Made by a program: the position numbers and the translations under genes | Shown here: one piece after another, positions 1 through 48,752 of the stretch | Layout: every line of letters begins with the position of its first letter | Position numbering within the stretch: position 1 is the first letter of the stretch | Source of the DNA: Kiritimatiellia bacterium | GTDB taxonomy: Bacteria; Verrucomicrobiota; Kiritimatiellia; UBA8416; JADHWI01 | NCBI GenBank assembly: GCA_030744755.1 | Contig: JASLPY010000002.1 | Span: forward strand, 67,006-131,005 | Direction of reading: 5' to 3' | Length of the DNA: 64,000 nt | The notes under the pieces: generated by a model | Told to the model about the DNA's origin: nothing | The model's database searches: none | What the model saw: the letters and a program-made list of their open reading frames with translations, nothing else

Positions 1-335
1 ATCGTTGGCCCGCGGGTGTGCCACAGGGTGCAACTCACAGCATCGGAAGCTTCGCTGACTGCGATAACGGGCCCACAAAATCCGTCATCGTGAAAATGAA
101 AGACGATCCCCGGAACGGGAAGTTCTACGATCTATGCTTTGCCAAACGCGGAGCGGTGGAACTCTATGACTGCGAAAAGGACACCGACCATGTCAATAAC
201 CTGGCGGCCGATCCGAAGCATGCCGGGACCATTGATAAACTTCGCTCACAACTGGTCGGGTATCTGGAAGCAACCGGGGATCCTCGCTTTACGGGTAAAC
301 CGGTGAAATTTGCGGAATACCCTTATCGGCCGTAG
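1..335 (+). CDS. Sulfatase, C-terminal fragment (5' end lies outside the window)
   Basis: The ORF runs in from the window edge. Its tail ...ELYDCEKDTDHVNNLAADPKHAGTIDKLRSQL... is typical of the C-terminal region of arylsulfatase-family proteins. Confidence 0.6.
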   Translation, partial: RWPAGVPQGATHSIGSFADCDNGPTKSVIVKMKDDPRNGKFYDLCFAKRGAVELYDCEKDTDHVNNLAADPKHAGTIDKLRSQLVGYLEATGDPRFTGKPVKFAEYPYRP

Positions 336-367
336 GTGTTGCAATAGAATGAAAAAGGGAGCGAAAA

Positions 368-1519
368 ATGGTCATTAAAAGTATCACCATCACCTTGACA
401 GCGATACTGCTTCTCACTGACGTTGCAGGCGCGGAACAGGTCAAGTTACGCATGGGACATGCTCAGAAACAGGAGGAGGCGAAGGCCGAACTGGAGGAAT
501 TCAAGCAGAGCTATTCCGACCTGGCCGGCTGGGAGGCCCGAAAGAAGAGAATCCGTGCGGGAATCCTGAAAGGGGCAAAGCTTACAAAACTGCCCGAGAA
601 AACACCTCTTAATCCGAAATATTTCAAGAAGCGGACCTACGATGGATACACAGTTGAGAGTGTTGCTTTAGAAAGTTCGCCCGGTTTCTATGTGACCGGG
701 ACATTATACCGTCCAACCGACCACAAAGGTTCTCTCGCCGGTATCCTTTGTCCGCACGGGCACGGCGGCCGCTTCAAGGCCAGCAAACAACAAAGGTGCG
801 CCGTACTTGCCCGGATGGGAGCCGTGGCCTTTCTGTACGATATGGTTGGCTACGGAGACTGGAAAGAGGCGGGCTGGGTGCACAGGAATACGCCGGAGGT
901 ACTCAGGCTGCAGACATGGAACAGCATGCGGATCGTGGATTTCGTTCTGTCACTACCGGGCGTAGATCCACAAAGGATTGGCATGACCGGTTGTTCCGGG
1001 GGCGGGACACAGACATTTCTCCTGACGGCAGTCGATGACCGGATAGCGGTCACCGTGCCGGTCTGCCAGGTTTCCGCCCATTTCTTTGGTGGCTGTGTAT
1101 GCGAGAGCGGTATGCCCATCCACCAAGGCCCCGATCACAAAACCAACAATGCGGAGATCTCGGCCCTTGCAGCACCTCGTCCACAACTTCTCATCTCCAA
1201 TGGTTCAGACTGGACGCTGAACACCCCAAAAATTGAGTACCCATACGTAAAACACGTTTACGAACTTTACGGGGCAGGGGACAGAGTTAAGAATGCTCAT
1301 TTTCCTAAAGAGAAACATGATTACGGAACATCCAAACGCATGGCGGCGTATCCTTTCCTGGCTGAACACCTGCAACTTGACATAAAGAAAGTTCAGGATG
1401 CAGAAGGGAAGATAGACGAATCTTTTGTGGTCCCGGAAGAGTACAAAGACCTTCTCGTTTTCGGCCCGGACAATCCCTATCCGAAAGACGCGGTGAAACC
1501 CAACACGCCATTGCCATGA
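368..1519 (+). CDS. Secreted alpha/beta hydrolase (esterase/peptidase-like)
   Basis: Ribosome-binding site aaaggga upstream of the ATG. N-terminal signal peptide. Nucleophile elbow GMTGCSGGG (G-x-S-x-G-G). Overall alpha/beta-hydrolase pattern similar to acetyl-xylan-esterase or S9-like enzymes. Confidence 0.7.
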
Positions 1520-18817: not shown

Positions 18818-21040
18818 ATGGGTACATCCTTGGACGTGCGTTTTATATTCAGGCAGGCGATGCGCGCCTGCCTTCCTGTTCTACTGGCCGCAGGAGTGGG
18901 TTGTAGCCGCGCGCCTGAACCCGTCGGTGACGCACCCGTTGTGTACGATTTTGCAGAACGTGCGGAACATGCCATCCAGGTAGGTACATGGGGTGAGCTC
19001 GATCTTGGCAGCAGTGATACGGACATCTTCCTTGCAAAGGGATGGGCCACACCGGGGCAGACGTCGGATGGCACTCCGGCACGATGGATGTCCAAGAAAG
19101 TGGCGGGTGTCACCTTCTTCCTTTCCGAGCCGGCCGATCTGACCATGACCGCCAGTTGCAAGCCTTATACAAGAAGCTACATGGCACAGACTCTGACCAT
19201 CGTGGTGAACGGCAACGTGGCGGCAAAGCAGGAGCTTGAACGTAGTTCATCTCTTTCCGACTACACGTTCAAGATCCCGTCCAGTTTTCTTCTCAGGGGC
19301 AACAACGAAATCGAGTTCAAGGCCAGGTATGCGAGTCGTCGGCACGGCACGGCTATTCGCTTCGGCCGCTTGGAGATGTCGGCAGCATCCGGACCCACAC
19401 CGGAACTACCACCTGTCGGAAGAATCGGGGATCCTTTGTTGCAGGAACCCGGGACACGTGTTGCCTGGCATATCGTGGCGCCGCAAGCCGGGTATGTCAG
19501 GGTTCAACCCGAGTTTCAAGCCGTTTCACCGGGGGGGGAATGCAACGTTGTGTTTTGCCTGGATGGGGACAGGTACGAGATCGGAACGTTCACTGAAAGC
19601 CGGAAGGAACCGCAAGTTCTCTCACTTGCTCGCTGGCCGGGAGCGCGAGGAAGGATCGAGTTCGAGGTCCTGGGGACCAATGCTGTTCATTGGAAAGGCG
19701 CAGTCATTGGCGGCCGGGTATCCCCGAAGGACGTCAACATTCTCTTCTTTACCATCGACACCCTGAGGGAAGACCACGTTGGGGCTTACGGATATCAGCG
19801 GGATACTACTCCGTGTTTCGATCGTCTCGCCACGCGGGGTACGATGTTCCTCAACGCGTTCGTGTCGTCTAATCTGTCTTCACCTTCACATGCCTGTATG
19901 CTGACTTCACGCTACCCCCAGAGTCACGGGCTATTTGCTAATGGCAGAACCATGGACCGTCAGCAGCTCACAGTGTCGCAGCTCTTAAGAAGGGCGGGCT
20001 ATGAAACGGCGATCTACTCAAACTTTCCCCTTCTCCACAGGGGAGATATGACCGGTAAAGGGTTCACGACGCGCAGGTATGTTCCCGGCACGGCAGACAC
20101 GCCCGATGTCTCGGGGAAAGAGATGAATGTCTACGCCGCCGCCATGAAATGGTTGAAGTCCAACAGGAAGAAGAAGATGTTCCTGATGGTTCACAGTGAG
20201 TATCTTCACCTGCAGAACATACCAGAGCCCTACGATGCAATGTACTGGGAAAAGCCGGCCGACATCACCGGCAAGAGCTACTTCCCCGCCTTATCCGAAA
20301 AACAGCGAAGCACGATGCGCAGGGAGTACAACCAAAAGCACATCGACCTTTCGGAGGATGAGATTCAGTCGGTCACGGACTACTATGATGGTGCGATACG
20401 TTTGACGGACGATTGCATTGCTGCCTTCATGGATGTTGTTGGTTTCTATGGTCTCGATCCTTTTACGGCTGTTGCGATTACTTCGGATCACGGAATCAGC
20501 ATTGGTCAGAATCATCGCATAAGTCACACGGGATGGCCCTTCGACCATCTTCTCAAGGTTCCAATGCTCTTCGTACTGCCGGGTGTGGACCAGGAGGCGG
20601 GAAGGTCGGTTGAAGGGATCGTGGAGTCTGTCGATATTGCGCCCACGCTTCTTTCTTACACGGGCATTTCCGTTCCCCGGCGAATGCAGGGCATTGACCT
20701 GCTGCCATGGATCGTTGCCAACGGGAGGCCATCGGACGAGGTCAAGGAATGCTCTTACGCGGCGCTGAAGGGATACTCACGCTGGTACTCCATAAGGACA
20801 AAGGAGTGGCGCTACTCCGTGAATGCAGAGGAAAAGGAGATCCTGGAAAAGAATCCTCGCAGTGACGAGCAGCCGGTATCGGTAGTGAGAGATTTTCCGA
20901 AGGAGCGGGAAGAACTTCGCAAGAAACTGTTCCACTGGGTAAATGCCACTCCGGACGTCACTGAGGAGACAGACAAGCATTTGCCGCCGGAGATTACAGA
21001 AATGCTCAGAAAGGCAGGTTACCTTGACGACATCCAGTGA
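18818..21040 (+). CDS. Sulfatase-like hydrolase (alkaline-phosphatase superfamily) lipoprotein with an N-terminal beta-sandwich domain
   Basis: Ribosome-binding site ggagag before the ATG at 18818. Lipobox LAAGVGC. C-terminal domain ILFFTIDTLREDH... The active-site stretch SSPSHACMLTSR aligns with the canonical C/S-x-P-S-R-x-x-x-L-T-G-R motif. Confidence 0.75.
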   Translation: MGTSLDVRFIFRQAMRACLPVLLAAGVGCSRAPEPVGDAPVVYDFAERAEHAIQVGTWGELDLGSSDTDIFLAKGWATPGQTSDGTPARWMSKKVAGVTFFLSEPADLTMTASCKPYTRSYMAQTLTIVVNGNVAAKQELERSSSLSDYTFKIPSSFLLRGNNEIEFKARYASRRHGTAIRFGRLEMSAASGPTPELPPVGRIGDPLLQEPGTRVAWHIVAPQAGYVRVQPEFQAVSPGGECNVVFCLDGDRYEIGTFTESRKEPQVLSLARWPGARGRIEFEVLGTNAVHWKGAVIGGRVSPKDVNILFFTIDTLREDHVGAYGYQRDTTPCFDRLATRGTMFLNAFVSSNLSSPSHACMLTSRYPQSHGLFANGRTMDRQQLTVSQLLRRAGYETAIYSNFPLLHRGDMTGKGFTTRRYVPGTADTPDVSGKEMNVYAAAMKWLKSNRKKKMFLMVHSEYLHLQNIPEPYDAMYWEKPADITGKSYFPALSEKQRSTMRREYNQKHIDLSEDEIQSVTDYYDGAIRLTDDCIAAFMDVVGFYGLDPFTAVAITSDHGISIGQNHRISHTGWPFDHLLKVPMLFVLPGVDQEAGRSVEGIVESVDIAPTLLSYTGISVPRRMQGIDLLPWIVANGRPSDEVKECSYAALKGYSRWYSIRTKEWRYSVNAEEKEILEKNPRSDEQPVSVVRDFPKEREELRKKLFHWVNATPDVTEETDKHLPPEITEMLRKAGYLDDIQ

Positions 21041-23204: not shown

Positions 23205-25382
23205 TCAGAACCATTTACGAAAAGCCAGATCAAACTCCCGTTGGCCGTTTGGGTCGATTTCTATCAGGTCGATGTCTTCATCGACATGTCGTGGGCGAAT
23301 CTCCACCGGCGGGTCTACTTTCATACCGTCGACCCAATTGTATTTCAGGACAACCGGCTGCGACGGGTCTTCCACCACGACGTGCAAGTTGTTGATACTG
23401 GGCTCAACCGTGCCTGCCCCTTCCAGAAACATGGAAGATTCGCGCTTCACACGGAACACGTACTTCTTCCGGTTGTTCCCCCACATGTATACCTCTTCAA
23501 ATAGATCCGGTCGCTCCCGAAGATGCCTGACCCATCTGCCGTGATAGGTCACAACATGGGTCACGTTGTAGGCGTGGAAGAATTCCTCCATTTTCTGATG
23601 ATCGCGGCGATAGCGCTTGGGCGGATAGTTATACTCAACAAGAGCGGGCGAAAAATGATAGTAGTCGCATGCCATCATCTCTCGTCCGGTCAATGCCGGC
23701 AGCACGGCAACATGACCGCCTCCATAAGCATGAACCGTACTCCCCGCAAACATTATGCGGCCGTCTTCCGGGGTGTTGTCGCGTATCCATTCCGCCGCCT
23801 GCAGAATCTCAGATGACATGGGACGGAACTTCTCCGGCTGACGATTCTCATACATGTTTGACACGTTGAGTCCGCCAAGCAGGAGAAGGGCGGTGAGACC
23901 CGCGCGAACGGGACTCAGCCTGAGGGATCCGTCTTCAAGGAAACGGCTGGCCCAGAGCCCGGCGGGGATTGCGGCCAGGAAGAACATGGCAATCCCGCCC
24001 CTGGAAAGTTCGAAAGCCGGCAGCAGAAGTTCTCCCCACGACGAGAGGATCAGAAGGCAGGCTAGTACCGGGACAAGAAACTGACGGATGTCGCGGCGCG
24101 GGAGCACGGTCACTCCCAGCAGGCCAAAGAAAACTATCAACGGGTGTGCCTGCCATAGTTGCTCTCTCATCGTGCGGAACCCACCCTTAAGTCCTTCAAT
24201 CCAGGGCTGCTGCTTGCCGGCTTCCTCGGCAAAAGCCTTCACGTCAACGCGGCTCAAAATCGACAAAAAGTAGGGCATGCAGACCAGGACGATCATTACT
24301 GTGCAAAGGGCAAAGAACAGGATGCGCCGCCTGGACAAGCGTGGAATGCAGAACAGCATTCCCGGGACAAGCGTGAGGGCAATGAATGCCGAGGGGGGCC
24401 ATGCAAGTAATAGAAACGCACTGAAAACAAGCAGAACCGCGGCCCAGGGCTCTGGTGTTTCCACCCACAGGAGCCTGTAGACGCATGCGCACACCAGCGG
24501 AAGAAACGATATTGAGAGACACGCCCCGATGGTTCCGAAATGAAGGAACCAGACAAAGAAGTGGCGGCTTACGCCCAGGGCCACAATGGCCGCGCACATA
24601 GACGCGGTCGTGGACCCCTTCATCATACGCGTCGCGCCCATCAACATGAACGGAATGAACACAATAGACAGAAACGCGATCGCCGGCGTGTAAACATTGA
24701 GAATGTTCCCGAAGCGCCAGAGAGGCCACAAGAGCGTCCCGGGACATGTCGTACCGGAGGCGACGATGTAGACAGCTTCTTTCCCACCGTTCCAGAAGGG
24801 GTTGTAATAAACGAGCCGGGGAAATGTCTTGCCGAAAACCCAGAAACGAAACATGAACGAAGAATGATCGTCATTGTAAAGAGGCATGCCCTGCGTCGTA
24901 TCAATCAGCTCATGAATGCAGCGAAACTGACATACCAGCAGGATAACAAAGGGGATGACCCAGCTTCTCCTCCAGCGAACGACAAACACCGGTGTCAAGA
25001 TGGCGGTAAACAATGCAAACCTGGCCATCCACGAATCGAACAGGACGGAAACAGGGTCGCTGGTCGGAAGCCATCGCAGGAAGTAGAACCTGCTCTGCAG
25101 TCCCGCGCTGGATGCCAGGTAAAGGGCCATACAGCAAGCCAGTACAATGCCCGGCAGCAGTTCCCCCGCGGCCTTTCCATCCTTTTCGGGGTAGCGCCGC
25201 CGGTACCACTCTGCGCCGGCACATGCCATGGCTACCCATATGAGCGGTGCGGCAAGTTTGCCGATTACGAAGCGCGCCTGCGTCTGGAGAACGCAAAGCA
25301 GTACCAATCCAAGTACGGCGGCCGATAACACCGCCAGCGCGGATCTGCTGTTGTTACCCTTGCTCATGCCCGAGATGCTCAT
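23205..25382 (-). CDS. Large polytopic membrane protein with a C-terminal extracytoplasmic domain (GT-C-like, family unclear)
   Basis: About 725 aa. More than 12 hydrophobic helices, then a roughly 200-aa soluble C-terminus. ATG at 25382 follows a TTG. Confidence 0.6.
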   Translation of the reverse strand: MSISGMSKGNNSRSALAVLSAAVLGLVLLCVLQTQARFVIGKLAAPLIWVAMACAGAEWYRRRYPEKDGKAAGELLPGIVLACCMALYLASSAGLQSRFYFLRWLPTSDPVSVLFDSWMARFALFTAILTPVFVVRWRRSWVIPFVILLVCQFRCIHELIDTTQGMPLYNDDHSSFMFRFWVFGKTFPRLVYYNPFWNGGKEAVYIVASGTTCPGTLLWPLWRFGNILNVYTPAIAFLSIVFIPFMLMGATRMMKGSTTASMCAAIVALGVSRHFFVWFLHFGTIGACLSISFLPLVCACVYRLLWVETPEPWAAVLLVFSAFLLLAWPPSAFIALTLVPGMLFCIPRLSRRRILFFALCTVMIVLVCMPYFLSILSRVDVKAFAEEAGKQQPWIEGLKGGFRTMREQLWQAHPLIVFFGLLGVTVLPRRDIRQFLVPVLACLLILSSWGELLLPAFELSRGGIAMFFLAAIPAGLWASRFLEDGSLRLSPVRAGLTALLLLGGLNVSNMYENRQPEKFRPMSSEILQAAEWIRDNTPEDGRIMFAGSTVHAYGGGHVAVLPALTGREMMACDYYHFSPALVEYNYPPKRYRRDHQKMEEFFHAYNVTHVVTYHGRWVRHLRERPDLFEEVYMWGNNRKKYVFRVKRESSMFLEGAGTVEPSINNLHVVVEDPSQPVVLKYNWVDGMKVDPPVEIRPRHVDEDIDLIEIDPNGQREFDLAFRKWF

Positions 25383-25398
25383 CAATGTGCGCGGTTGG

Positions 25399-27825
25399 CT
25401 ATGACGGTTCTTTCCCCAGGAAGAGAGGAGCCGAAACGTAGAGAATCGCAGCTATAGCAAACACTGTCGTGAAACCGAAGTTGACGGCTATCAGAACACT
25501 GAGAGCTGTGCCGATAACCGTAAAGTAACCGTTCACTGCCCATCCCCAGGGGATGATCGGCTTGCCTGCTGCTTTCAAGTGACGGATTCCGCTGGGCATC
25601 GGCATGCCCATGAAGAAACCTGCGATTCCGGTGAAGAGGATGGCCACAAGCATCCGTACCGGAAGAGAGCTTCCGAGAAAGCGCCCTGTTACTGCAGGGG
25701 TCCCGAAATGTACGGCCAGCACGACGAGTGCGACGATTAACAGGAGAATACGCAGGTTCTTGACCGACGGGTTCATGATGCCCGAGCAGAGACTCCCCAG
25801 ACCGGCAAACACCAGCAGGCTGGCAAGCACGGAGGCCATACTGTACACGGGTGCTCCCAGGAACAGCACCAACTTCTGGATAAGACAGATTTCCACGAAG
25901 ATGAAGGCTATGCCGAGAAACGCGAAGTAGCCCAGAGGCCTTCTGTTCTTCCTGAGAGTCTCGCGTAGTTCGCGTTTGGAGAACATGGGGATGCCGAAGA
26001 ATACCGTTGAAAGCAGCAGCCCCTCAAAAAGGATGATCAGCGGTGGCAAATCGCCCTTGGGAACTCTTTTGTCAAGCTTGTTGGGCGCTTCCACGTGGTA
26101 GATCTCGCCGGGCAGCATCGGCATTTCATCCCGTTTTCGGTCCTGAAGTCCAAGAATCTTGAAATGATTAAAGAAAGGTTTCTTGTCAGTTGACGGTTCG
26201 AAGTTAAAGCATCCCAGCCGCCAGAACTTGCTGGGATCCTGCGAAGTGGCAATCTGGTAATAGAGGTTATTGTCGATATCAGGAAGATCCTCCGTGCGAT
26301 GCGGCGCATAGAGGATCTTCCTTTCGTGATCTCCACTTTCGTAGAAGTTGTAGAGAGTATCTATCTCACCTTCCGTGAACGGAGACTTCTTCATCATGAA
26401 AGTGTTCACATGCCACTGGCTTCCCTCGCCGACGAACAGCCGTTTCGAATACTCTTCCGGGCTCATCCCCATTTGCCTGAACATTTCAACGGCAACACTC
26501 AACATGCGGATGGTGCCCCACCTGCTGATTGCCAGGATGCCGTCATCCGTCAGATGATCGTAAAAGTCGCGAAACGACTCGACGGTCAGCAGATACGTCT
26601 CGCTCAGGTTCAAAGAACCGTTCTGAAAGGCGATAGGAGTGAAATTGTTGACCTGGTGGATCAGGTCAAATTCCCGGTTGCTTCGCCTGAGGTAGCTCCG
26701 GCCTTCATCCACCACCAGCTCGCTGTATTTGCCGTCGGTGAAGAGCCCTCCGGCGTAGTCCCGGTAGTCCACGGTTACGAATTTGGCGATGGCCGGGTCC
26801 ATCTCGATTCCAAGCACGTGCCGGGCACCCATCATGAGCCCGTAGAGCGAATCTTCCCCGCCCGACGTTCCGATCACGCAAACGGTATGATTCGTTTTGA
26901 TCGTGTGCGGGATGGCCTTGTGATGCAAAAACTTGGCGGCACGTTCAAGCAGTGCCTCGCGTTTGGCGGCCAGGCTTTCGAAATCCCCGTCGAAATTCAC
27001 AATGGCCGATTCGTTCACCCCCCCCGCAATCCACACTCGTTTGCGGCTTCCCGACATGCCGGCGATGTCAACTCTCGACAGGGCGCTCCACTTTGTTGCT
27101 TCAATATTGCCCTTTTCCAGGTCGTTCTTGAATGAACGTTTCGAGACATGCACCTTCAGAGCTATATGGTCAGCTGCCCTGGGCGTCCAAAGAGCGGTCA
27201 ATACCGCAGCTGCAACTGCAGCCACGATTCCCACTGCGTTCAACTTGCGTGATGGACCTTCGCTGCCGATGAGAAAAGTGAATGCACCAACGATAGCCGT
27301 ACCCGATGCAAGTACCACCAGACCCTGTGGCTGAATCAACTGGATAAGCGGAACAAGCGCAAAGCATCCCAATCCCGCGCCAACCAGGTCGGCAAAGTAG
27401 TAGATGTTGGCCTTGCTGCCGCGCTTTTCGAAGAGGAACCCGATGATCAATCCGATGAATGCGAAGGGGACACCCATCGATACGAAGACAGCCGTGATGT
27501 TCAAGAGCTCCCGCAATACACCGTCGGGAAATGATGGCAAATGAATCGGCACGGTGTTCATGACGTGGAAGGCTGTGAAAAACGTGATGCCTGAAAGCAG
27601 GGCGCATGAAAACAGAAAAGCGGTGTCCTTTATCTGCAGCAACTTAGGCCAGCACGTAAGAATGACCCCGCTCAGACCAAAGCCGAACATAGCGGTACTT
27701 ATCACGAGATAGGCATAGTTGGCCCAAACGCTGAACTCGAAGATCTTGGTGGCGGTGATTTCGAACAGCAGACTTGCAAACGCGACAAGAAACACGGCAA
27801 TAAGCTCACAATAGCGACGTCTCAT
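25399..27825 (-). CDS. Spermidine-synthase-like fused membrane protein (transmembrane block, Rossmann aminopropyltransferase fold, transmembrane block)
   Basis: Ribosome-binding site gggaaaggg before the ATG at 27825. N-terminal transmembrane bundle. Central VIGTSGGEDSLYGLMMGARHVLGIEMDP...DLIHQV matches spermidine/spermine synthase motifs. C-terminal transmembrane helices. Confidence 0.75.
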   Translation of the reverse strand: MRRRYCELIAVFLVAFASLLFEITATKIFEFSVWANYAYLVISTAMFGFGLSGVILTCWPKLLQIKDTAFLFSCALLSGITFFTAFHVMNTVPIHLPSFPDGVLRELLNITAVFVSMGVPFAFIGLIIGFLFEKRGSKANIYYFADLVGAGLGCFALVPLIQLIQPQGLVVLASGTAIVGAFTFLIGSEGPSRKLNAVGIVAAVAAAVLTALWTPRAADHIALKVHVSKRSFKNDLEKGNIEATKWSALSRVDIAGMSGSRKRVWIAGGVNESAIVNFDGDFESLAAKREALLERAAKFLHHKAIPHTIKTNHTVCVIGTSGGEDSLYGLMMGARHVLGIEMDPAIAKFVTVDYRDYAGGLFTDGKYSELVVDEGRSYLRRSNREFDLIHQVNNFTPIAFQNGSLNLSETYLLTVESFRDFYDHLTDDGILAISRWGTIRMLSVAVEMFRQMGMSPEEYSKRLFVGEGSQWHVNTFMMKKSPFTEGEIDTLYNFYESGDHERKILYAPHRTEDLPDIDNNLYYQIATSQDPSKFWRLGCFNFEPSTDKKPFFNHFKILGLQDRKRDEMPMLPGEIYHVEAPNKLDKRVPKGDLPPLIILFEGLLLSTVFFGIPMFSKRELRETLRKNRRPLGYFAFLGIAFIFVEICLIQKLVLFLGAPVYSMASVLASLLVFAGLGSLCSGIMNPSVKNLRILLLIVALVVLAVHFGTPAVTGRFLGSSLPVRMLVAILFTGIAGFFMGMPMPSGIRHLKAAGKPIIPWGWAVNGYFTVIGTALSVLIAVNFGFTTVFAIAAILYVSAPLFLGKEPS

Positions 27826-27947
27826 ACTCGCCCTTTCCCAAGAATTCGGAAAAACTCCACCCAGTCCAGCAGGTCCGGCCAATGCCAAAGGCAAAGCGCC
27901 TGTCACGGTGGGGTTACTATGCTTTCCCGGCGGAGCTTGTGTCAAGG

Positions 27948-30305
27948 TCAAGGGAGGAGAAGGAGATGGCCATTCCAGGAGAACCGGGGGAGATCCTGCG
28001 CTCCGGGGGCGGGGGCAGAGAAGGTGAAGAGTGAGTAATGAGGAAAATCAGTTCTTGCGAACTCAGCTTTCTCCTTAAGGACCGTGCCCAGGAAAGTCTC
28101 CATTTCATCTGCAAGCCGGGATACCACGGCAACCCCCAGGCCATCGCGGGGCCGGAATGTTCTTTCGATCCTTGTGTACGAATACCGTGGATTGAAACGG
28201 GGATAGACCGGCAGGCGGTTGTCCCTCGAAGGCAGTTTTGTGATCAGGGAGGAGCTTAGCCAGCGGTCCGTCACCGTGAAATCCACCCCCTTATCGATTA
28301 TCGCTTCGGTAATGTCTTCGACTTCCTCTTCTGAAACCGGAGATCCATTGCCGAGCTGCTTGAACAACCTCAGCTCGTTAATCTCCCAGGGTCGTTGAGA
28401 AACGATGTCGATCTTGACGTATTGCGCGGTAACGGGTTCGAAGCGAATCTCACCCCGTGCGTAATGCCCCATGATGTACGCCTTGTTGCCGTCAACGTAG
28501 GCATGCAGTGCCCTGTCGATACCGCCACGCCTGATGTAGTCGGTGCCATTGGTGGACGTTGACAGGTGCCAGGTTCCCGGCAGAAGGTCACTTTTGGTAG
28601 ACGTTAAGAATGCACAGCCGAGAGTGACCGGACGTTGCGCATCAATGATGATGCTGCAGGTCACGGGTCCGGTTTGGCTGCGGGCAAAGGCCAATGCAGT
28701 ATTCGCAGAATGATCGATGGCGAAGGATGGTTTCCCCGTGACCGGCCCGCTGGTTGTAATTCCCAGGTCGGCCAAGGGTACCGAGGATTCATTGATCCGA
28801 GGAACTTCGATCGAGTGAAGTATCATCTCTCCGCTATCGATAACTTTGTAATCGGTAATACCGGCCGCGGTGAAGTTTGCTTTCACCTTGCTGAAATGCC
28901 TCCTCGAACACATGAACGCCATGTTTGGGTCCTGTTCTGCGATCTGGGCGGAAGGGTCGTAACGTTCGTAATAGGAAGAAACAAAGCGCAGGCGATCCCT
29001 CGCGAAGAAGCTGAGAATCTGGCCGGAAAGTCCGCCGATGTCAGATCCAATGATGGTGACGTTTTTCAATCCCGCCGTTTCCACCAGGTCGACAACCTCG
29101 AAGTACTCGGCGCACCTTGCCTTCTTCTTTGGGGCCTTTGCCCTTGAGGTCATTTCTCCTGAGATCGCATTGAATGAAACCCAGGCGACAAGAGCCAGCC
29201 ACGCAAACCGTCTGAGCATACGATTCTTTGCTGTCACCGCGGAGGCGAAGGTTGTGCAGACAAGGACAATGGTCAGCGGGATGAGGTATCTGGGGGCGCC
29301 AAGACCGGCCATGGGGTGGGGCAGGTACATCACGAGGAATACGCCGGCGAACAGCAGGGGAACCCAAACGGTTCTGTTGCGCCCCGGCCGCAAGCTGGTG
29401 CAAACATGGCACAGGAACGGAACGGTCAGTACGCCAAGACAACCCAGGACAAAGAGATTGACCATTGTGAACTCACGAGTGACCGGCCATGTGAAAAGCG
29501 CCGGCATGGTTTCGCAAAGTACCTTCAGGTTGCCGGGAATCAGTTTCAACGATGGTGTGTCGGTTGTCATAGAGTCGAATGCGACATCACCTGTAACGAG
29601 CAATACGGGAATCAGGCCCAGCAACGAGACTGCGCCCGCGAATGCAAGGGCGGTCATTGTGGTCTTGTTGATCCCTTTTCTACAAAGGGTCAGCAGCAGG
29701 ATCAGCGCACCGCTCGCGAGGTACGATAGCACCTGGAGATTTGTCCATATGCCGAGCGCAGCAGACACACCCATTCCTGCCGCGTGGAGCCATTTGCTTC
29801 GCGGCGACAGGTCATGGAGAAGCATCCGCAGGGCAAGCCAGAGGAAGAAGGTTCCGAAGAAGAAGGTGCCAGGATAACCGCCGTGTGCTGCAAGGCTGAA
29901 CCATTGTGCATACCAACCAGGCACCGCCACGCAAAGAGCCGCAGCAATGGCTCCGGTCCGGCCGAACAGTTCTCTGAACAGAAAGTAAGAAGCGGCAATC
30001 CACATCAGTGCAAACAGGATGGGAGATAAGGACAGGGAAACATCCGACACTCCGAAGATGAGGAACATCAGAGAAGCAAGGTAAGCCTCGAGGGCGCCCA
30101 TGTAGCTTTGGCCATAGAAGAACAGCGGACGTGACACACCTTTAAGAATATGCAGTCCCATGAGACCAACTGTCGCCGTATCGAACTCCACGAAAAATGC
30201 AAGTATCGACATTCTCAGCCGAACAAGAAACCCAAGCAGCAGTATGGCCGGCAACGCCAGTTTCCAGGCGCATTCTCTAAGAGATCTTTTCTTTTCCTGT
30301 GACAT
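27948..30305 (-). CDS. ArnT/PMT-like GT-C glycosyltransferase (GT39/GT83-type) with a C-terminal discoidin-like domain
   Basis: DTATVGLMGLHILKG...FFYGQSYMGALEAYLAS is the PMT_2/ArnT-family N-terminal signature. The C-terminal ..QYVKIDIVSQRPWEINELRLFK resembles an F5/8-type C domain. Confidence 0.75.
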   Translation of the reverse strand: MSQEKKRSLRECAWKLALPAILLLGFLVRLRMSILAFFVEFDTATVGLMGLHILKGVSRPLFFYGQSYMGALEAYLASLMFLIFGVSDVSLSLSPILFALMWIAASYFLFRELFGRTGAIAAALCVAVPGWYAQWFSLAAHGGYPGTFFFGTFFLWLALRMLLHDLSPRSKWLHAAGMGVSAALGIWTNLQVLSYLASGALILLLTLCRKGINKTTMTALAFAGAVSLLGLIPVLLVTGDVAFDSMTTDTPSLKLIPGNLKVLCETMPALFTWPVTREFTMVNLFVLGCLGVLTVPFLCHVCTSLRPGRNRTVWVPLLFAGVFLVMYLPHPMAGLGAPRYLIPLTIVLVCTTFASAVTAKNRMLRRFAWLALVAWVSFNAISGEMTSRAKAPKKKARCAEYFEVVDLVETAGLKNVTIIGSDIGGLSGQILSFFARDRLRFVSSYYERYDPSAQIAEQDPNMAFMCSRRHFSKVKANFTAAGITDYKVIDSGEMILHSIEVPRINESSVPLADLGITTSGPVTGKPSFAIDHSANTALAFARSQTGPVTCSIIIDAQRPVTLGCAFLTSTKSDLLPGTWHLSTSTNGTDYIRRGGIDRALHAYVDGNKAYIMGHYARGEIRFEPVTAQYVKIDIVSQRPWEINELRLFKQLGNGSPVSEEEVEDITEAIIDKGVDFTVTDRWLSSSLITKLPSRDNRLPVYPRFNPRYSYTRIERTFRPRDGLGVAVVSRLADEMETFLGTVLKEKAEFARTDFPHYSLFTFSAPAPGAQDLPRFSWNGHLLLLP

Positions 30306-42478: not shown

Positions 42479-45010
42479 ATGGATACCAAGCGAATTATCC
42501 TTATCTCCCTTCTGCTTACAGTGGTCTGCTGGGTGGTTTTTTCCTGGCCCCTGCCGCGCTACTTCGGGTCGGGGGTGACAAGATCGGCCGAGAGGCACGG
42601 AAACATAGTCCGGAGAATGGTTCCCGGCGATCATCTCCAGCTCATGTATCACTTCTGGCTGGCAGGAGACATGGTTGCCGGTAAGACGCCTGCTTTCCAG
42701 AACATCTACGAGTTCAACGAGGGCAATGACGAAGACTGTATAAGAAGATCTTTTTACTTTGCGCCTTACTCGCTTGTAAGCAGCCTGGCGTCCCTGGCGG
42801 GCGGGCAGGCCTTCGGCTGGAATTTCGCAAGCGTTCTCTCCCTGTGGCTTACTTATCTCTTTACCTGGAGACTTGTGGCAAGGTACAACCCGGACGAGCT
42901 GCAAGCAGCGGTCGCCGCAATGGTCGGCCTGCTCCTTCCATTTCGGTGGCACGGTGTGTGCGAGGGAAGTCCGATAGGTTTCGCAATGTCGTGGATTCCC
43001 GCGCTCATGCTCGGCATAGACGGGGTAATGCGCAAGGGATCCAAAAGCAGCGCGGTACTTGCGGGATGCGCCCTGATGTTCTCCGGTTGGGGGGATGCCC
43101 ACGTATTCTTCTTTGCGGCCCTGATGATTCCTGTCTGGGGGATCATCACGTGGCTTGCCCTGCCGGACCGGAACCTTAAAGTTGTCGGCATGCGCCTTCT
43201 TTCTGTTTGGCCAGCCATACCATTTGCCCTGTCATCCTCTATCAATCTGTTCTGGAAACAGGAAAGAATCGCCGATTCGGGTCTTGAAAAAGGGTGGGAC
43301 CTGATTTACGTGGCTTTATGCTCTCCCAGCCCGGGCGGACTGTTCAGCAGAGCCTTCGAGGGTGACACGCGCGGTATCTACATAGGATGGTTCCTGATCG
43401 TGTGTGTCGCGGTGGCTGCGACAGTGTTACTGACACGCGCCTTCCGGCATAGGACTTCTGATCATCGCATGACCTGTGTGTTCTTCATTCTTCTTGCTGG
43501 AATGTTCATCATCACACTTCTGGCCATGGGTACAAAAGCCCCTGCAGGGGGGGCGGTCATTAAGACCGTAAGGTTAATCTTCTCTCCCTACCGAAAGATC
43601 AGGCAGCCCGACAAGATATTCGTCGTGATGCCGTCACTGTTGGCCATTGCATCGGGTATCACCCTTTCGACCTGGATCGGTCTTATCAGGCAACGGCTGT
43701 GGAAATACGGTTGCGTTGTGGTCTTCGCGGTTGTGATATTCGCCGACTATAACAAACATATTGCACCGGAGATATGTCTCATCGATTCTGAACAGAAGGC
43801 TTATGAAGCCATAGTCACGGATGCCGCGAAGACAGGCGATGTTCCCAGGGCCGTCGCGGTTCCCCTCTGGCCGGGTGATTCTCACTGGTCATCGCTTTAC
43901 GAGTACTATGCGTCACTTTACAGAATCCGTTTCTTGAACGGATACTCACCAGTGGCGAAAAAGCGGTACGTCGAAGAGGTGTTTCTCAAGCTGAAACCCC
44001 TGAATATGGGGTATATTTCCGATGATCACATCAAACACCTTGACGATATGGGAATCCGCTACCTGGTGCTGCACGAAGATGCTTTTCCCGAGAAGGTAAG
44101 CCTCTTCCCTGTTGCAATGACGCTGAAACGTCTGCTCAATCATCCCCGGTTGGAGCTTCTCCGGCAGGAAGAAAGCGTATGGTCATTCAAGATCATGGAT
44201 GAACCGATCACGAAGGATGTACTCGGAACAGACTGGCAGGTTCACTTTCCCAGCAGAAAGTGGGAAATGGAACGGGTAAGGACGGATACAGGCGAGGAAT
44301 TGACTGATAGTCGGGCCTCGCGGGGCCGGTACCGTCGGATCGCGGCAGGAGATGTCGTGACCGGTAAGGGCACGAGCGCGGTGTATTTTGAAGGCCTGAA
44401 ATGGCAACTACGCGCCAAGGGAGAGGGTGTTCTTAAGGTGACAACTTTCTCTGAGGACGAAGCACTGTGTGCAACCAATGTCACGATGTCAACGGATGAG
44501 TGGGAATGGGTGGATATCCCGATAGGAAGTTTTGAGAACGCGCCCCGCACCGCAGGGCGCTTAGATTGCCAGGAAGGCAGTGTTGACCTGGACCTGCTTC
44601 TTCTTTCGGCAGGTGAGTGGGCCGGTCCCCAAGTCGGTGGCAGCATAAAGATTCCGGCAGCCTGTTTCTTCCATGCCGGCTACACCGATATTGAGAACGG
44701 GGAAGTGGTGCTGAGAGCATCAAGGGACGCCGCCGAAGAGGTCATTTACGCAAAGAACCTGCGGTTGGATCCGGGCGCTTATCGCGTTGAGATGGAATAC
44801 TCGTCGGATGGTGAGGACGGTGCAGTGCTGGGTTCTCTGATATACCGGTTCGAGAATGTGGAACCCGAAGGATCAACTGCCGTGACAGACGGTTTGCCGG
44901 CCAGTCTGGAGTTTGTGCATGAACGGGATGTTCCTTTTCGACTGGCTTTTCGTTTTAACCGGACTCGCGATGTGAGAATCGGCACAGTAACTATCAACCG
45001 GACCAGGTAG
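42479..45010 (+). CDS. Large polytopic membrane protein with a C-terminal soluble domain (YfhO/GT-C-like architecture)
   Basis: 843 aa. N-terminus PGDHLQLMYHFWLAGDM..GKTPAF followed by many transmembrane helices, then a roughly 350-aa extracytoplasmic C-terminus. Confidence 0.5.
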   Translation: MDTKRIILISLLLTVVCWVVFSWPLPRYFGSGVTRSAERHGNIVRRMVPGDHLQLMYHFWLAGDMVAGKTPAFQNIYEFNEGNDEDCIRRSFYFAPYSLVSSLASLAGGQAFGWNFASVLSLWLTYLFTWRLVARYNPDELQAAVAAMVGLLLPFRWHGVCEGSPIGFAMSWIPALMLGIDGVMRKGSKSSAVLAGCALMFSGWGDAHVFFFAALMIPVWGIITWLALPDRNLKVVGMRLLSVWPAIPFALSSSINLFWKQERIADSGLEKGWDLIYVALCSPSPGGLFSRAFEGDTRGIYIGWFLIVCVAVAATVLLTRAFRHRTSDHRMTCVFFILLAGMFIITLLAMGTKAPAGGAVIKTVRLIFSPYRKIRQPDKIFVVMPSLLAIASGITLSTWIGLIRQRLWKYGCVVVFAVVIFADYNKHIAPEICLIDSEQKAYEAIVTDAAKTGDVPRAVAVPLWPGDSHWSSLYEYYASLYRIRFLNGYSPVAKKRYVEEVFLKLKPLNMGYISDDHIKHLDDMGIRYLVLHEDAFPEKVSLFPVAMTLKRLLNHPRLELLRQEESVWSFKIMDEPITKDVLGTDWQVHFPSRKWEMERVRTDTGEELTDSRASRGRYRRIAAGDVVTGKGTSAVYFEGLKWQLRAKGEGVLKVTTFSEDEALCATNVTMSTDEWEWVDIPIGSFENAPRTAGRLDCQEGSVDLDLLLLSAGEWAGPQVGGSIKIPAACFFHAGYTDIENGEVVLRASRDAAEEVIYAKNLRLDPGAYRVEMEYSSDGEDGAVLGSLIYRFENVEPEGSTAVTDGLPASLEFVHERDVPFRLAFRFNRTRDVRIGTVTINRTR

Positions 45011-45047: not shown

Positions 45048-45719
45048 TCAGGCCTGTCTTCTCTGGCGGTAAAGGCTGGGGTCTGTCACCTCTGCCATCT
45101 TCTCACGATCCATACCGCTGTCTAGAAAATCCGCGACCTTTGCCGCCGTTGCTGCGGAATCGGCAAGAGTCTGGTTATAGTTGCAGTAAAACACATCGAA
45201 ACACTCTCGGTCTGCGAGCCATTCCCTGGTGTCCGCAAGGTGCTTCTCGAAAAGAGCTTTCATCTTATCATCGCCTGGACCACCCGGTTTCCCGCGTCTT
45301 TCGAGCATCTTCTGCTGAGAAGCAAGAGTCTCATCGAGATCTCGGATCATGAAGATAACCTTGTACCGACGGTCTTCCGGCAGATCTCTGAGCAGCATGG
45401 ATATCATTTTGACAACCTTGCCCTCGGCATCATCCAACCACGAAGCATCCTCCTTCGTCTTCTTGACTTTCTCCAACTCGTAGTATCCCCGGGGATTATC
45501 TTCGTCTGCTTCGCGAATCCCGTCCGTCACAGTATTCATGCCTCCGGCTTCGAGCATCTTCATCATCATTGAAGTCCCGGAACGTGGAAGACCTGAAACA
45601 ATCGTTATCAAAACCAACTCCCTCCATTGACCCAAACCCGAAAGGCCTTTGATCTTGCCCTGCGGCAAACACATCCTTGTACTGTTATCGTGCGGCAGAC
45701 TATAGCACCCTGCAGCCAA
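45048..45719 (-). CDS. Sulfotransferase-family protein
   Basis: PAPS 5'-phosphosulfate-binding P-loop IVSGLPRSGTSMMMKML, with a sulfotransferase-like remainder. Start ambiguous: TTG at 45719 or ATG at 45674. Confidence 0.7.
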   Translation of the reverse strand: MAAGCYSLPHDNSTRMCLPQGKIKGLSGLGQWRELVLITIVSGLPRSGTSMMMKMLEAGGMNTVTDGIREADEDNPRGYYELEKVKKTKEDASWLDDAEGKVVKMISMLLRDLPEDRRYKVIFMIRDLDETLASQQKMLERRGKPGGPGDDKMKALFEKHLADTREWLADRECFDVFYCNYNQTLADSAATAAKVADFLDSGMDREKMAEVTDPSLYRQRRQA

Positions 45720-45864: not shown

Positions 45865-47550
45865 ATGACTGAGAACAGTGCTCCTGTCCGGGTAGCCGTT
45901 ATGGGCGCTGGCTACTGGGGAAAGAACATAATCCGCTCGATGAACAGTCTTGGATCGCTGGCGGCAATCTGTGACAGCGAAGAAGACAGGCGGAAGGCAT
46001 TTGCTGAACAGTATCCCGAATGCAGAATCGTCAGCGCATATTCTGATATCCTGGAAGACAAGGACATCCCGGCGGTAGCCGTCGCCACGCCCGCGGAATC
46101 GCATTCGGACTTCGTGAGAAAAGCTCTCCTCGCGGGCAAAGACGTGTTCGTAGAGAAGCCACTGTGTCTGTCGCCGGAGACGGGCAGAGAGTTGGTCGCC
46201 CTTGCCGAAAGCCGCGGCCTGATCCTGATGGTCGGACACCTCCTCTGGTACCATCCCGCAGTATTGAAGCTTAAAGCGATGATTGATGAAGGCGCATTGG
46301 GCCGTATTCAATACGTGTACTCCAATCGTCTCAACCTGGGGAAAATACGGCGGGAGGAAAACATCCTCTGGTCTTTCGCGCCTCATGATATATCCGTTAT
46401 TCTCGGTCTGTTGGGAGAGATTCCCGACCACGTTTCCGCTCACGGAGGTAACTACCTGCATAGCCATATTGCAGATGTCACGGTGAGCGTCTTGTCTTTT
46501 CCCAGCGGTGTGAAAGCCCACGTCTTCGTGTCATGGCTGCATCCATTCAAAGAGCAAAAGCTTGTGGTTGTTGGCGAGAAGAAGATGGCGGTGTTCGATG
46601 ACGTGGAGAAAGAGAACAAGCTCATGCTCTATCCGCATTCCATCGACTGGAAGAACAAGATGCCGATTGCAAACAAGGCAGAAGCCCAGGCGGTTGAGAT
46701 AGAGAACGTTGAGCCTCTCAGAGAAGAGTGTGCCCACTTCCTTGACTGCGTAGCAAAAAGGGTCACGCCAAGAACGGATGGCAAGGAAGGGTTGCGTGTC
46801 CTAACTGTACTCGAGCGTTGCCAAAGGGCTATGGACCTGGAGACTGCCCAGGAGGCGGGAAGCCAGGATGAAGAGGAGGACAAGCACGTGCCCGGAGATT
46901 TCTTCGTACATGAGAGCGCATGTGTTGATGATGGCGCAAGGATAGGCAAGGGAACGAAGATCTGGCATTACTCTCATGTGCAGGCAGGCAGCACAGTTGG
47001 AGCGAACTGCTCGCTGGGCCAGAACGTTAATATTGCCAACGACGTTGTGATGGGCAACAACGTAAAAATCCAGAACAATGTCAGCCTGTACAAGGGTACA
47101 GTCATTGAAGACGATGTATTCCTCGGGCCTTCCTGTGTTCTGACCAATGTCAGCAATCCGCGCTCGCAAGTGAGCCGCCGCTCAGTATACGAGAAGACGC
47201 TCATCCGCAGAGGGGCGACGATTGGTGCCAACTCAACGATTGTGTGCGGAGTGGAGATAGGCCGTTACGCTTTCGTTGCGGCGGGCGCGGTTGTCACGAA
47301 GGATATAGCCGATTACGCACTTGTGAGGGGGAATCCCGCAAGGGCGGTGGGATGGATAAGCAGACACGGTCACCCACTTTCCGAGCCGGATGAAGAGGGC
47401 ATAATGGTCTGCCCGGAAAGCAAGTTGCGATACAAGGAATCTGAGCCGGGCGTCCTTCGATGCCTGGATGTTGACGAAGAAGATGTGCTTCCCGAGAAGC
47501 TGGCCGTTGGAAAACATCCTTACCGGTCTTTCAAGGAGGCTCAGCAGTAG
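45865..47550 (+). CDS. Bifunctional Gfo/Idh/MocA sugar dehydrogenase plus hexapeptide N-acetyltransferase (WbpB/WlbA-like fused to WbpD/WlbB-like)
   Basis: Ribosome-binding site aaggagac. N-terminal VRVAVMGAGYWGKN...VFVEKPL. C-terminal left-handed beta-helix repeats (..IGANSTIVCGVEIGRYAFVAAGAVVTKD..). Confidence 0.8.
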   Translation: MTENSAPVRVAVMGAGYWGKNIIRSMNSLGSLAAICDSEEDRRKAFAEQYPECRIVSAYSDILEDKDIPAVAVATPAESHSDFVRKALLAGKDVFVEKPLCLSPETGRELVALAESRGLILMVGHLLWYHPAVLKLKAMIDEGALGRIQYVYSNRLNLGKIRREENILWSFAPHDISVILGLLGEIPDHVSAHGGNYLHSHIADVTVSVLSFPSGVKAHVFVSWLHPFKEQKLVVVGEKKMAVFDDVEKENKLMLYPHSIDWKNKMPIANKAEAQAVEIENVEPLREECAHFLDCVAKRVTPRTDGKEGLRVLTVLERCQRAMDLETAQEAGSQDEEEDKHVPGDFFVHESACVDDGARIGKGTKIWHYSHVQAGSTVGANCSLGQNVNIANDVVMGNNVKIQNNVSLYKGTVIEDDVFLGPSCVLTNVSNPRSQVSRRSVYEKTLIRRGATIGANSTIVCGVEIGRYAFVAAGAVVTKDIADYALVRGNPARAVGWISRHGHPLSEPDEEGIMVCPESKLRYKESEPGVLRCLDVDEEDVLPEKLAVGKHPYRSFKEAQQ

Positions 47551-47636
47551 CCTTCCTGATTCGTTTAGGGAGCCTGCCGCATGACCACGAGATATCGCCT
47601 TGCCACGTTGAGCGGGCATTTAGAAAGGAATAAGAA

Positions 47637-48752
47637 GTGAACGTACCCCTCTTGGATCTCAAGGCCCAATACCAGTCCATCAAGACGGAGATCGATCCTG
47701 TGGTAGCCGAGATAATGGAGTCCCAGTACTTTATTCTTGGTCCAAAAGTCAAGGAATGTGAAGAAGCGGTTGCCGCCTACTCGAACTGTAGCCATGCCAT
47801 CGGCGTCTCTTCGGGAACGGATGCCCTCCTCATTGCTCTTATGGCCGAAGGGATTGGCGCTGGAGACGAGGTCATCACTACGCCGTACACGTTTTTCGCC
47901 ACTGTCGGCTCAATCGTCCGCACCGGGGCAACTCCCGTGTTCGTGGATATCGATCCGGTCTCGTTTAACATAGACCCGTTGGCAATAGAGGAGAAGGTCA
48001 CGGACATGACCAAGGCGATCATTCCCGTTCACCTATACGGGCAGATGGCGGACATGGATCCGATCATAGAGATTGCCCGCAAGAATGGCATTGCGGTCAT
48101 TGAAGACGGCGCGCAGGCTATAGGCGCCGAGCGGAACGGGCAAAGAGCAGGATCTGTAGGAGACTACGGATGCTTCTCGTTCTTTCCGTCGAAGAACCTT
48201 GGCGCGTTTGGCGATGGCGGCATGGTTGTTACGAACGATCCGGAGAGAGCAGAAAGGCTCGAGATTCTGAGAGCTCACGGTTCCAGGCCCAAGTATTACC
48301 ATACGGTGATCGGCGGGAATTTCAGGCTGGATGCCTTGCAGGCGGCAGTAGTCACCGTGAAGCTATCCCACCTTGATTCGTGGACTGCAGGGCGCCAGTC
48401 GAATGCGCAGAGATACGACCGTCTCCTGGGCGAGACGGGCCTGGTGGAGAAAGGACTTGTTTCCCTGCCTACGGTGATAGCCAACAGACATATCTTCAAT
48501 CAATACGTGATACGGGTGGACAGAAGAGATGAGCTCAGGGATTACCTGAAAGAGAACTCGATCGGGTGCGAAATCTACTACCCGGTTCCGCTACACATTC
48601 AGGAATGTTTCAGCTACCTTGGGCTATCGAAGGGCGATATGCCCGAAAGCGAGAAGGCTGCCGACACAACCCTGGCACTGCCCGTGTACCCGGAACTGTC
48701 CGACGAGCAGGCGAAGTACGTGGTAGACACGATAGCATCTTTCATGTCTTGA
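47637..48752 (+). CDS. DegT/DnrJ/EryC1/StrS-family PLP-dependent sugar aminotransferase (WbpE-like)
   Basis: GTG start with ribosome-binding site gaaagga. [12 protein letters not shown] lysine motif [19 protein letters not shown]. Confidence 0.9.

Follow-up and report, generated by a model that had tools for sequence, protein, structure and literature searches.

A lipid-anchored sulfatase-fold protein with a Ser/Thr-type active site and a conserved membrane-protein neighbour in a Kiritimatiellia bacterium: a putative phosphodiesterase or phosphotransferase

The sulfatase-fold gene and its neighbour

The subject of this analysis is a pair of genes located in a 64,000-nucleotide stretch of a Kiritimatiellia bacterium genome (GenBank assembly GCA_030744755.1, contig JASLPY010000002.1, positions 67,006 to 131,005 of the forward strand), which is referred to as the window. 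The first gene encodes a predicted lipoprotein with a sulfatase fold (hereafter the enzyme), and the second a predicted inner-membrane protein (hereafter the partner). The start ATG of the enzyme gene lies seven bases after a GGAGAG sequence and its stop codon TGA occupies positions 21038-21040. The 740-aa product is 100% identical to a protein from a Kiritimatiellia metagenome-assembled genome (MAG) that NCBI names 'sulfatase'. The positions of all features are collected in Table 1.

Table 1. Positions of the enzyme, its predicted active-site residues and domains, the partner and the sulfotransferase gene (nucleotides of the window, unless residues of the enzyme are indicated).
Feature	Position	Strand	Remarks
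Sulfatase-fold lipoprotein (enzyme) gene	18818..21040	+	740 aa; open reading frame (ORF) with ribosome-binding site, Pfam PF00884, AlphaFold2 (AF2) model
N-terminal beta-sandwiches	residues ~41-190 and ~213-300		AF2 model
Alkaline-phosphatase-fold catalytic domain	residues ~305-640		AF2 model, Pfam
C-terminal subdomain			ends in conserved L-x3-G-Y-L
Asp314, predicted metal ligand	19757..19759	+	aligns with EptA E244 and the first Asp of sulfatases; invariant in orthologs
Motif SSPSHACMLTSR	19877..19912	+	residues 354-365; Ser354 predicted nucleophile, His358 at the canonical Arg position
His459-x4-His464	20192..20209	+	His464 invariant; correspond to EptA H380/H385, MCR-1 His395 and the general-acid His of PMH/EfAS
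Asp557-His558 (SDHG), predicted metal ligands, and His570	20486..20527	+	invariant in orthologs
Partner, predicted six-helix inner-membrane protein, ~230-242 aa	21024 (TTG) or 21093 (ATG) to 21752	+	
PAPS-type sulfotransferase-domain protein, ~187-189 aa	45048..45617 (ORF to 45719)	-	Pfam

Pfam assigned residues 307-617 of the enzyme to the Sulfatase family PF00884 (145.7 bits, E 2.5e-42) and detected SGSH_C (E 2.6e-11) and, much more weakly than PF00884, Phosphodiest PF01663 (44.4 bits against a gathering score of 23, E 2e-11). The AF2 model, with a predicted local distance difference test score (pLDDT) of 89.9, consists of a signal helix, two beta-sandwich domains, an alkaline-phosphatase fold and a C-terminal subdomain. 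The hydrophobic N-terminal helix ends in a cysteine at about position 29, which is nearly invariant in the orthologs (...AGVGC or ...LAAGC), and this helix with its conserved lipobox Cys fits a lipoprotein signal. For the beta-sandwich domains, Pfam gave weak hints alone (CBM-like, E 0.029; BcsB, E 0.12), and a comparison with PDB sequences remained without a match. When the model was compared with the PDB using Foldseek, the top 50 matches were all S1 sulfatases or phosphonate monoester hydrolases (PMH), with E-values of ~1e-24 and target-normalised template modelling (TM) scores of 0.63-0.72.

The partner gene directly follows the enzyme gene on the same strand in 10 out of 10 loci, i.e. in the window and in nine fetched loci that represent seven distinct contexts. 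In the window, a TTG start at 21024 overlaps the stop of the upstream gene by 17 nt; over all the loci the two reading frames often overlap, by 17 nt at most, or else are separated by up to 47 nt, and the partners are ~225-250 aa long. One of the ten loci differs in that a 38%-identical partner follows shorter sulfatase-like genes without the N-terminal domains. Identity of the partner among relatives amounts to 48-87%, which makes it better conserved than the enzyme. A sequence-only reading of this DNA, in which the enzyme was described as sulfatase-like with a variant active-site motif, had overlooked the lipoprotein signal as well as the beta-sandwiches at the N-terminus and the conserved partner in the membrane.

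Active-site residues and their conservation

Comparison of the enzyme with all PDB chains (phmmer/HMMER) placed the motif SSPSHACMLTSR column for column on the C/S-x-P-x-R signature of solved sulfatases, opposite LSGPSRACMITGK in 7p24 and LSGPSRACILTGK in 5g2v, and likewise in 4upi and 2w8s. With whole-protein E-values of 1e-24 to 1e-26, the match cannot be put down to chance. The formylglycine position is taken by Ser354 and that of the Arg by His358, so that the window protein reads S-S-P-S-H. The sequence-only reading had claimed exactly these two substitutions, and the alignment (E near 1e-25) confirms them; neither in the phmmer nor in the ortholog alignment was the Arg restored by a different placement of the motif.

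Other residues of the sulfatase active site are replaced as well. In the alignment to solved sulfatases, the sulfate-binding Lys and His that follow the GY.T motif correspond to Asn402 and Pro404 of the enzyme, and the Lys found in PMH and arylsulfatases thirteen residues past the metal-binding Asp corresponds to His570. In the Enterococcus arylsulfatase EfAS, mutation of R65, K110, H112 or K324 abolishes or nearly abolishes the activity towards sulfate, phosphate and phosphonate esters (PMC12421950); the counterparts of these residues in the enzyme are H358, N402, P404 and H570. Of the features that define S1 sulfatases, the enzyme therefore has the fold (PF00884), but neither the C/S-x-P/A-x-R signature nor the Lys/His/Lys set of sulfate binders.

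In overall sequence and fold, S1 sulfatases and PMH (BT4656 5g2v, RlPMH 2vqr, BcPMH 2w8s, EfAS) are nevertheless closest to the enzyme. They have in common the Asp...Asp-His metal ligands, the general-acid His, an Asn at +21 and the SGSH_C subdomain. The enzyme differs from them by a Ser/Thr nucleophile instead of Cys or Ser converted to formylglycine, by His, Phe or Tyr instead of Arg at +4, by Asn/Pro instead of Lys/His, and by His instead of Lys at 13 residues after the Asp. In addition, it carries the lipobox and two N-terminal beta-sandwiches and has an obligatory membrane-protein neighbour.

The window protein was aligned with 11 full-length orthologs (36-76% identity) from Kiritimatiellia, Phycisphaerae and metagenome bins. 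Position 354 is Ser in ten of the 12 sequences and Thr in the other two, which are precisely the orthologs that share 75-76% identity with the window protein. At position 358, the Arg site, His occurs eight times, Phe three times and Tyr once, while Arg is absent from all 12. Residues D314, P356, S357, H370, G371, N375, H464, D557, H558 and H570 are invariant.

In order to place the enzyme among its wider relatives, 1.84 billion cluster representatives were searched exhaustively with HMMER, which yielded 2283 proteins at E<1e-30. The nearest 147 of these 50%-cluster representatives (226-154 bits) were aligned to the catalytic-domain profile, giving 163 domain hits at the nucleophile position: 142 with Thr, 19 with Ser, two with Ala and none with Cys. 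At +4, His was found in 93 cases, otherwise V, L, T, F, I or Y, and never Arg. The remaining positions of interest are widely kept: D at the D314 position in 158/162, His at those of H459 and H464 in 134/144 and 143/146, D557 in 157/162, H558 in 161/162 and H570 in 148/158. Cys-type proteins were retrieved only by a word-based search and at no more than 104 bits. They have Arg at +4 in 9/9 cases and Lys at the His570 position in all six whose D-x-G region was read directly, whereas a T/S nucleophile was paired with Arg in none of 202 domain hits. Judged from these alignments, Cys/Arg/Lys and Thr-Ser/no-Arg/His are two mutually exclusive active-site states, and the window protein belongs firmly to the second.

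These results bear on several earlier suggestions. The Ser...His motif, presented in the sequence-only reading as a rare variant, is by the same census the signature of a very large clade in which Ser is the minority state, so that its rarity was overstated. Clustering with canonical Ser-type sulfatases, which had been named as an outcome that would speak against a non-canonical activity, was not observed: the 147 nearest relatives have T, S or A, with no Cys and no Arg at +4. The idea of an unusual maturation has to be abandoned, since Thr, present in two orthologs and in 142 of the 163 domain hits, cannot become formylglycine. As pointed out by the authors of SulfAtlas, Thr is present in many of the seed sequences of PF00884; its oxidation would yield a ketone and not formylglycine, and the name sulfatase is not applicable to proteins of this type (PMC5066984). 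No Pfam match to Radical_SAM/SPASM or FGE-sulfatase was found among the ORFs scanned in the window. An NCBIfam match (E 3e-9) to a 'manganese-dependent arylsulfatase' was considered as a candidate sulfatase without formylglycine and rejected, as this is a Cys-type enzyme (PMC12421950). Taken as a whole, the enzyme annotated as 'sulfatase' is almost certainly not a sulfatase.

The clade is annotated as 'sulfatase-like hydrolase/transferase' and is characterized by T-L-P-S-H ... SDHGESLGEHG..H, often with fusions to tetratricopeptide (TPR) repeats or to 4-6 transmembrane helices. The enzyme belongs to it, sharing the signature residues and the C-terminal L-x3-G-Y-L, and all of the 147 nearest relatives examined are of this type. 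Within the clade its ortholog group is distinguished by Ser over Thr, the lack of the Glu of DHGE, the N-terminal domains, the lipobox and the membrane partner. Most clade members are soluble or have a single anchor helix. About 27 of 198 (~14%) have 4-6 N-terminal transmembrane helices, as in LtaS and EptA, among them P0123, P0131, P0202, P0208, P0219, P0220 and P0230; many others are TPR-repeat fusions or contain two tandem catalytic domains. The motif L-x3-G-Y-L/I (20999-21040 in the window) is kept across the whole Thr-type clade, where it forms the extreme C-terminus of short members and stands just ahead of the TPR repeats in fused ones. A search of the PDB with the clade profile returned formylglycine enzymes and TPR proteins alone, and thus no solved Thr-type relative.

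The residues of the enzyme can be compared with those of phosphoethanolamine transferases, for which E. coli EptA was used as a stand-in for MCR-1. The ortholog alignment matched EptA with an hhalign probability of 90.6% (E 1.3e-6), pairing D314 with the Glu ligand E244, S354 with T282 of CGTATAVSVP, SDHG with SDHG (D557-H558 with D455-H456) and H570 with H468. A direct check showed that VH459-SEYL-H464 matches LH380-TIGS-H385 of EptA without gaps, and that the Asp-to-His spacing of 13 is identical in both. In MCR-1, Glu246, Thr285, Asp465 and His466 form the zinc 1 site, while a putative second site, in contact with the phospho-Thr, comprises His395 and His478 (PMC5216409). His570, thirteen residues after Asp557, stands at the position of both the Lys of PMH/EfAS and His478 of MCR-1. 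Because the residues of the enzyme match the EptA/MCR-1 set, they appear to form a metal-activated constellation for Ser/Thr phosphoryl transfer.

The likeness to EptA/MCR-1, and by analogy to LtaS, OpgB and BcsG, thus consists of the hydroxyl nucleophile and the series acidic ligand, Thr/Ser, H-x4-H, SDHG and His at +13. The enzyme displays hallmarks of lipid head-group phosphotransferases of the alkaline-phosphatase superfamily, i.e. Thr/Ser in a site of an acidic residue and Asp-His, flanked by two His at the same spacings. EptA and MCR-1 act on the periplasmic face of the inner membrane, as we assume for the enzyme. On the other hand, the polytopic N-terminal membrane domain fused to such enzymes (five helices in EptA/MCR-1) is missing; the enzyme has a single signal/lipobox helix, is a lipoprotein and has a separate, non-homologous six-helix partner. 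It also has Asp instead of Glu as the first ligand, and in overall sequence it is nearer to sulfatases.

The membrane partner and the surrounding genes

The partner is predicted, from the positions of its helices in the model and the positive-inside rule, to span the membrane with six helices and to have its N- and C-terminus in the cytoplasm. Its AF2 model has a pLDDT of 93.3. Neither Pfam (E<=1) nor NCBIfam gave a match, no significant fold match was found in the PDB (best Foldseek hit E 0.19, TM 0.28), and a search of PDB sequences with the partner profile returned nothing at E<=10. E49, D103, H109, E189, E216 and E220 are invariant, and E104, E110 and E217 nearly so. All these conserved acidic and His residues are located at predicted periplasmic helix ends or in a periplasmic amphipathic segment, that is, on the side of the lipoprotein. 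The possibility that the partner is the split-off N-terminal transmembrane domain of other clade members was considered and rejected, as the hhalign probability was 0.1% and a hidden Markov model of the partner found no match among 198 clade proteins.

Distant homologs of the partner (e.g. L011/L012:7001-7741, L013:7001-7780, L025:9875-10567 and L023:9674-10549) have as neighbours UbiA with HAD, FAD_binding_4 with a short-chain dehydrogenase (DprE1/DprE2-like), PMT_2 (GT-C), mevalonate kinase/decarboxylase and a Wzx-like flippase. Judged by these neighbours, there are hints that the partner family handles polyprenyl (isoprenoid) lipids or glycan carriers.

Two further arrangements of the pair are worth describing. 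In a Phycisphaerae MAG (L006/L018:3964-7744), a single case, the enzyme gene, the partner gene and a DAGK_cat/YegS-type lipid kinase gene overlap in a string. This is reminiscent of DgkB, which recycles the diacylglycerol made by LtaS. In L010 (3932-9753), a more distant locus, two tandem short Thr-type sulfatase-like genes (T-G-P-A-H) are followed by the partner and preceded by a Radical_SAM_N2/Radical_SAM protein without a SPASM domain.

In the window, the pair is embedded in a large envelope-glycan region. This region encodes GT2 and several GT4 glycosyltransferases, a PMT_2-type GT-C and other large membrane proteins, two flippase-like LPG_synthase_TM proteins, a pyruvyl transferase with a FrhB-like protein, acetyltransferases, two SGNH/GDSL proteins, an epimerase, a WbpB/D/E-like set and two heparinase II/III-like proteins. 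Most of this gene order is kept in a 75%-identical relative. Since other orthologs sit in different surroundings, the conserved module is the two-gene unit and not the glycan locus.

Within the region, four very large predicted membrane proteins (726, 850, 785 and 843 aa) are encoded at 23205-30305 and 42479-45010. They gave weak or single Pfam hints (DUF6541 below the cut-off; PMT_2) and presumably represent GT-C-type glycosyltransferases or polymerases. In the 75%-identical relative, two of the four also adjoin the pair. At 45865-48752, a DegT aminotransferase comes after a GFO/IDH/MocA oxidoreductase that is fused with a hexapeptide acetyltransferase, a set similar to the WbpB/WbpD/WbpE pathway by which di-N-acetylated uronic acid sugars are made. 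The two heparinase II/III-like proteins are encoded consecutively at 56355-60979, downstream of a methyltransferase-glycosyltransferase fusion and within a glycosyltransferase-rich biosynthetic stretch.

Proposed function and alternative explanations

Based on our observations, we suggest that the enzyme is a periplasmic, lipid-anchored, metal-dependent phosphodiesterase/phosphotransferase with a Ser/Thr nucleophile, which together with the six-helix partner acts on a lipid-linked phosphodiester and possibly decorates an envelope glycan. We assign this proposal a probability of roughly 60%. It builds on the fold, the motif, the conservation of the residues, the lipobox and the gene pairing, all of which were observed directly. 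In line with it are the LtaS/EptA-like membrane helices of some clade relatives, the abundance of GT2, GT4 and GT-C genes in the window locus and, as circumstantial support for head-group transfer, the lipid-kinase gene that follows the pair in the Phycisphaerae MAG. The sequence-only reading had likewise suggested a non-canonical phosphoryl-transfer activity within the alkaline-phosphatase superfamily; this still seems the best interpretation given that EptA aligns in its nucleophile, metal ligands and His residues.

In the mechanism that we infer, with respect to the metal, the substrate class, the physical partnership and the balance of transfer and hydrolysis, Asp314, Ser354, Asp557 and His558 would coordinate a divalent metal by which the Ser is activated. 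Ser354, which is replaced by Thr in some orthologs, would attack directly through its hydroxyl and give rise to a covalent phospho-enzyme, as in EptA/MCR-1, LtaS, BcsG and NPP. His464, His570 and usually His459 would stand where sulfatases have the general-acid His and the Lys, at the positions of His395 and His478 of MCR-1, and Asn375, 21 residues past the nucleophile, would bind a non-bridging oxygen. Since the enzyme lacks the cationic Arg and Lys by which sulfate or monoester dianions are bound, a phosphodiester is the most likely substrate. The enzyme would work at the outer face of the inner membrane with its co-translated partner, and the pair would cleave a lipid-linked phosphodiester, i.e. 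the head group of a phospholipid or of a polyprenyl phosphate. The phospho-substituent might then be passed to an envelope glycan held by the N-terminal beta-sandwiches, or be hydrolysed.

Several observations weigh against this proposal. All of the top PDB matches of the enzyme, in sequence as in fold, are formylglycine enzymes. The NCBIfam model P_eth_NH2_trans scored 23.7 bits against a cut-off of 500, and the MCR and EptA models were likewise far below theirs. The sequence-only reading had advised an alignment with EptA and MdoB; EptA aligned well, but OpgB gave a weak, partial match with an hhalign probability of 7%. The Glu of DHGE, which in MCR-1 hydrogen-bonds His478, has given way to Ile, Val, Met or some other residue in the ortholog group, although it is present in much of the wider clade. 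As position 358 is occupied by His, Phe or Tyr within the ortholog group, an essential role of His358 is unlikely. A characterised Thr-type PF00884 enzyme of the clade was looked for in the literature without success; it appears that no clade member has been characterised or has a solved structure. With no homology between them, the partner is at most an analogue of the fused transmembrane domains, and it is without detectable relation to known lipid-handling folds. Remote members of its family (22-34% identity) are found in many phyla in the absence of a sulfatase-like gene. Finally, some loci of the pair are not glycan loci, e.g. the one between RNase T and H+-PPase.

The main rival is a periplasmic hydrolase of the NPP/phosphatase type (a phosphodiesterase, pyrophosphatase or polyprenyl-diphosphate phosphatase) that serves in scavenging or carrier recycling without glycan transfer. 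The partner would then be only an anchor or a substrate presenter, or would be functionally unrelated. This is possible, if not probable. The NPP family (PF01663) is matched above its gathering score, and NPP share with the enzyme the Thr/Ser nucleophile and the Asn at +21; the NPP motif T-F-P-N-H...YP..HG...N presumably resembles the Ser-x-P-x-His and YP..HG...N of the enzyme, including this Asn. A hydrolase would also suit a clade whose members are mostly soluble or have a single anchor helix, as well as the occurrence of the pair outside glycan loci and the UbiA, mevalonate and DprE1/2-like genes beside distant partner homologs, which suggest polyprenyl lipids. However, the C-terminal subdomain of NPP is a different one, and the ligand set of the second zinc, in particular a third ligand for an NPP-type second site, was not identified in the enzyme. 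In addition, the lipid anchor, the N-terminal domains (CBM-like by weak Pfam matches) and the strict pairing with a membrane protein would be unusual for scavenging.

Loss of enzymatic function, with the protein serving, like PbgA/YejM, as a non-catalytic sensor, scaffold or binding protein, seems improbable. The loss of the canonical sulfatase residues, the variability of residue 358 and the tight pairing with a membrane protein could be read in this way. However, the predicted metal ligands, the nucleophile and both flanking His are invariant down to 36% identity and are kept clade-wide, a pattern typical of active enzymes.

The fourth explanation concerns the second enzyme of interest in the window, a sulfotransferase dependent on 3'-phosphoadenosine-5'-phosphosulfate (PAPS). 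The sequence-only reading had pointed to this gene in the same locus, and the gene itself is genuine: Pfam matched the ORF at 45048-45719 (minus strand) to Sulfotransfer_3 (34.4 bits, cut-off 27) and Sulfotransfer_1 (24.7 bits, cut-off 22), and a P-loop-like PRSGTS, the 5'-phosphosulfate-binding loop, lies near the N-terminus. Translation probably begins at a TTG near 45611-45617, after GGAGGGAG, and the length would then be as in homologs. The family (~190 aa) is very widespread and strongly conserved, with ~60% identity across phyla. One relative adjoins an ATP-sulfurylase/APS-kinase gene, which is consistent with PAPS dependence of the family.

It might therefore be supposed that the enzyme catalyses sulfuryl transfer with a Ser/Thr nucleophile and without formylglycine, in a cycle of sulfation and desulfation with this sulfotransferase. 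Homologs of the sulfotransferase (52-60% identical) do adjoin other Thr-type sulfatase-like genes in 5 of 80 metagenome loci (L050, L058, L078, L109 and L113) and in L016 (4519-6573), and the PAPS-synthesis gene beside one relative points in the same direction. However, these Thr-type neighbours represent other subfamilies, ~25% identical to the window enzyme, some of them TAT-secreted and several apparently cytoplasmic. L016 itself is a Marinimicrobia locus resembling those for the lipopolysaccharide core (GT9, Glyphos_transf, Kdo/WaaP kinase). A tblastn search for the sulfotransferase in the 13 loci L001-L013, among them the nine fetched loci with ortholog and partner, gave no match. In the window it lies 24 kb and ~20 genes away from the enzyme gene, on the opposite strand, it is monocistronic, and its product is cytoplasmic whereas the enzyme is periplasmic. 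To our knowledge, no sulfatase with a Ser/Thr nucleophile has been described. Sulfuryl transfer by the enzyme is thus hardly to be expected, and the link between the two genes, which the sequence-only reading had implied, is weak, while sulfation of the glycan encoded in the window is possible.

Kiritimatiellota genomes are rich in sulfatases. Nonetheless, a genuine Ser-type formylglycine sulfatase, activated by an anaerobic sulfatase-maturating enzyme that tolerates His for Arg, is largely refuted in spite of the Ser on the formylglycine position and the sulfatases among the best PDB matches, given the prevalence of Thr, the constant absence of Arg with a variable +4 residue (H/F/Y), the loss of the required Lys, His and Lys, and the lack of a maturase gene among the window ORFs scanned.

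Returning to the phosphodiesterase/phosphotransferase that we favour, what is new here is a conserved trans partner without a significant fold match in the PDB, whereas the kind of enzyme and Thr-type members of PF00884 were known before. A more specific version of the proposal, which is speculative and should be regarded as doubtful, is a two-component machine in which the new membrane family presents a polyprenyl-phosphate or phospholipid head group to a Ser/Thr transferase of the alkaline-phosphatase fold that decorates an envelope glycan. If true, this would be a trans-acting counterpart of LtaS, EptA and BcsG, and it would provide the first functional handle on a clade of thousands of 'sulfatase-like' proteins.

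Members of the clade routinely enter annotations and counts under the name sulfatase, which inflates the sulfatase inventories of bacteria of the Planctomycetes-Verrucomicrobia-Chlamydiae group and of other groups. The signature T/S-x-P-S-[H] ... H-x4-H ... DHG ... H marks enzymes with a hydroxyl nucleophile, for which it offers a simple filter. The strict pairing with a six-helix membrane protein, in turn, constitutes a concrete two-gene unit, which could reveal a new kind of modification or recycling of envelope lipids or glycans.

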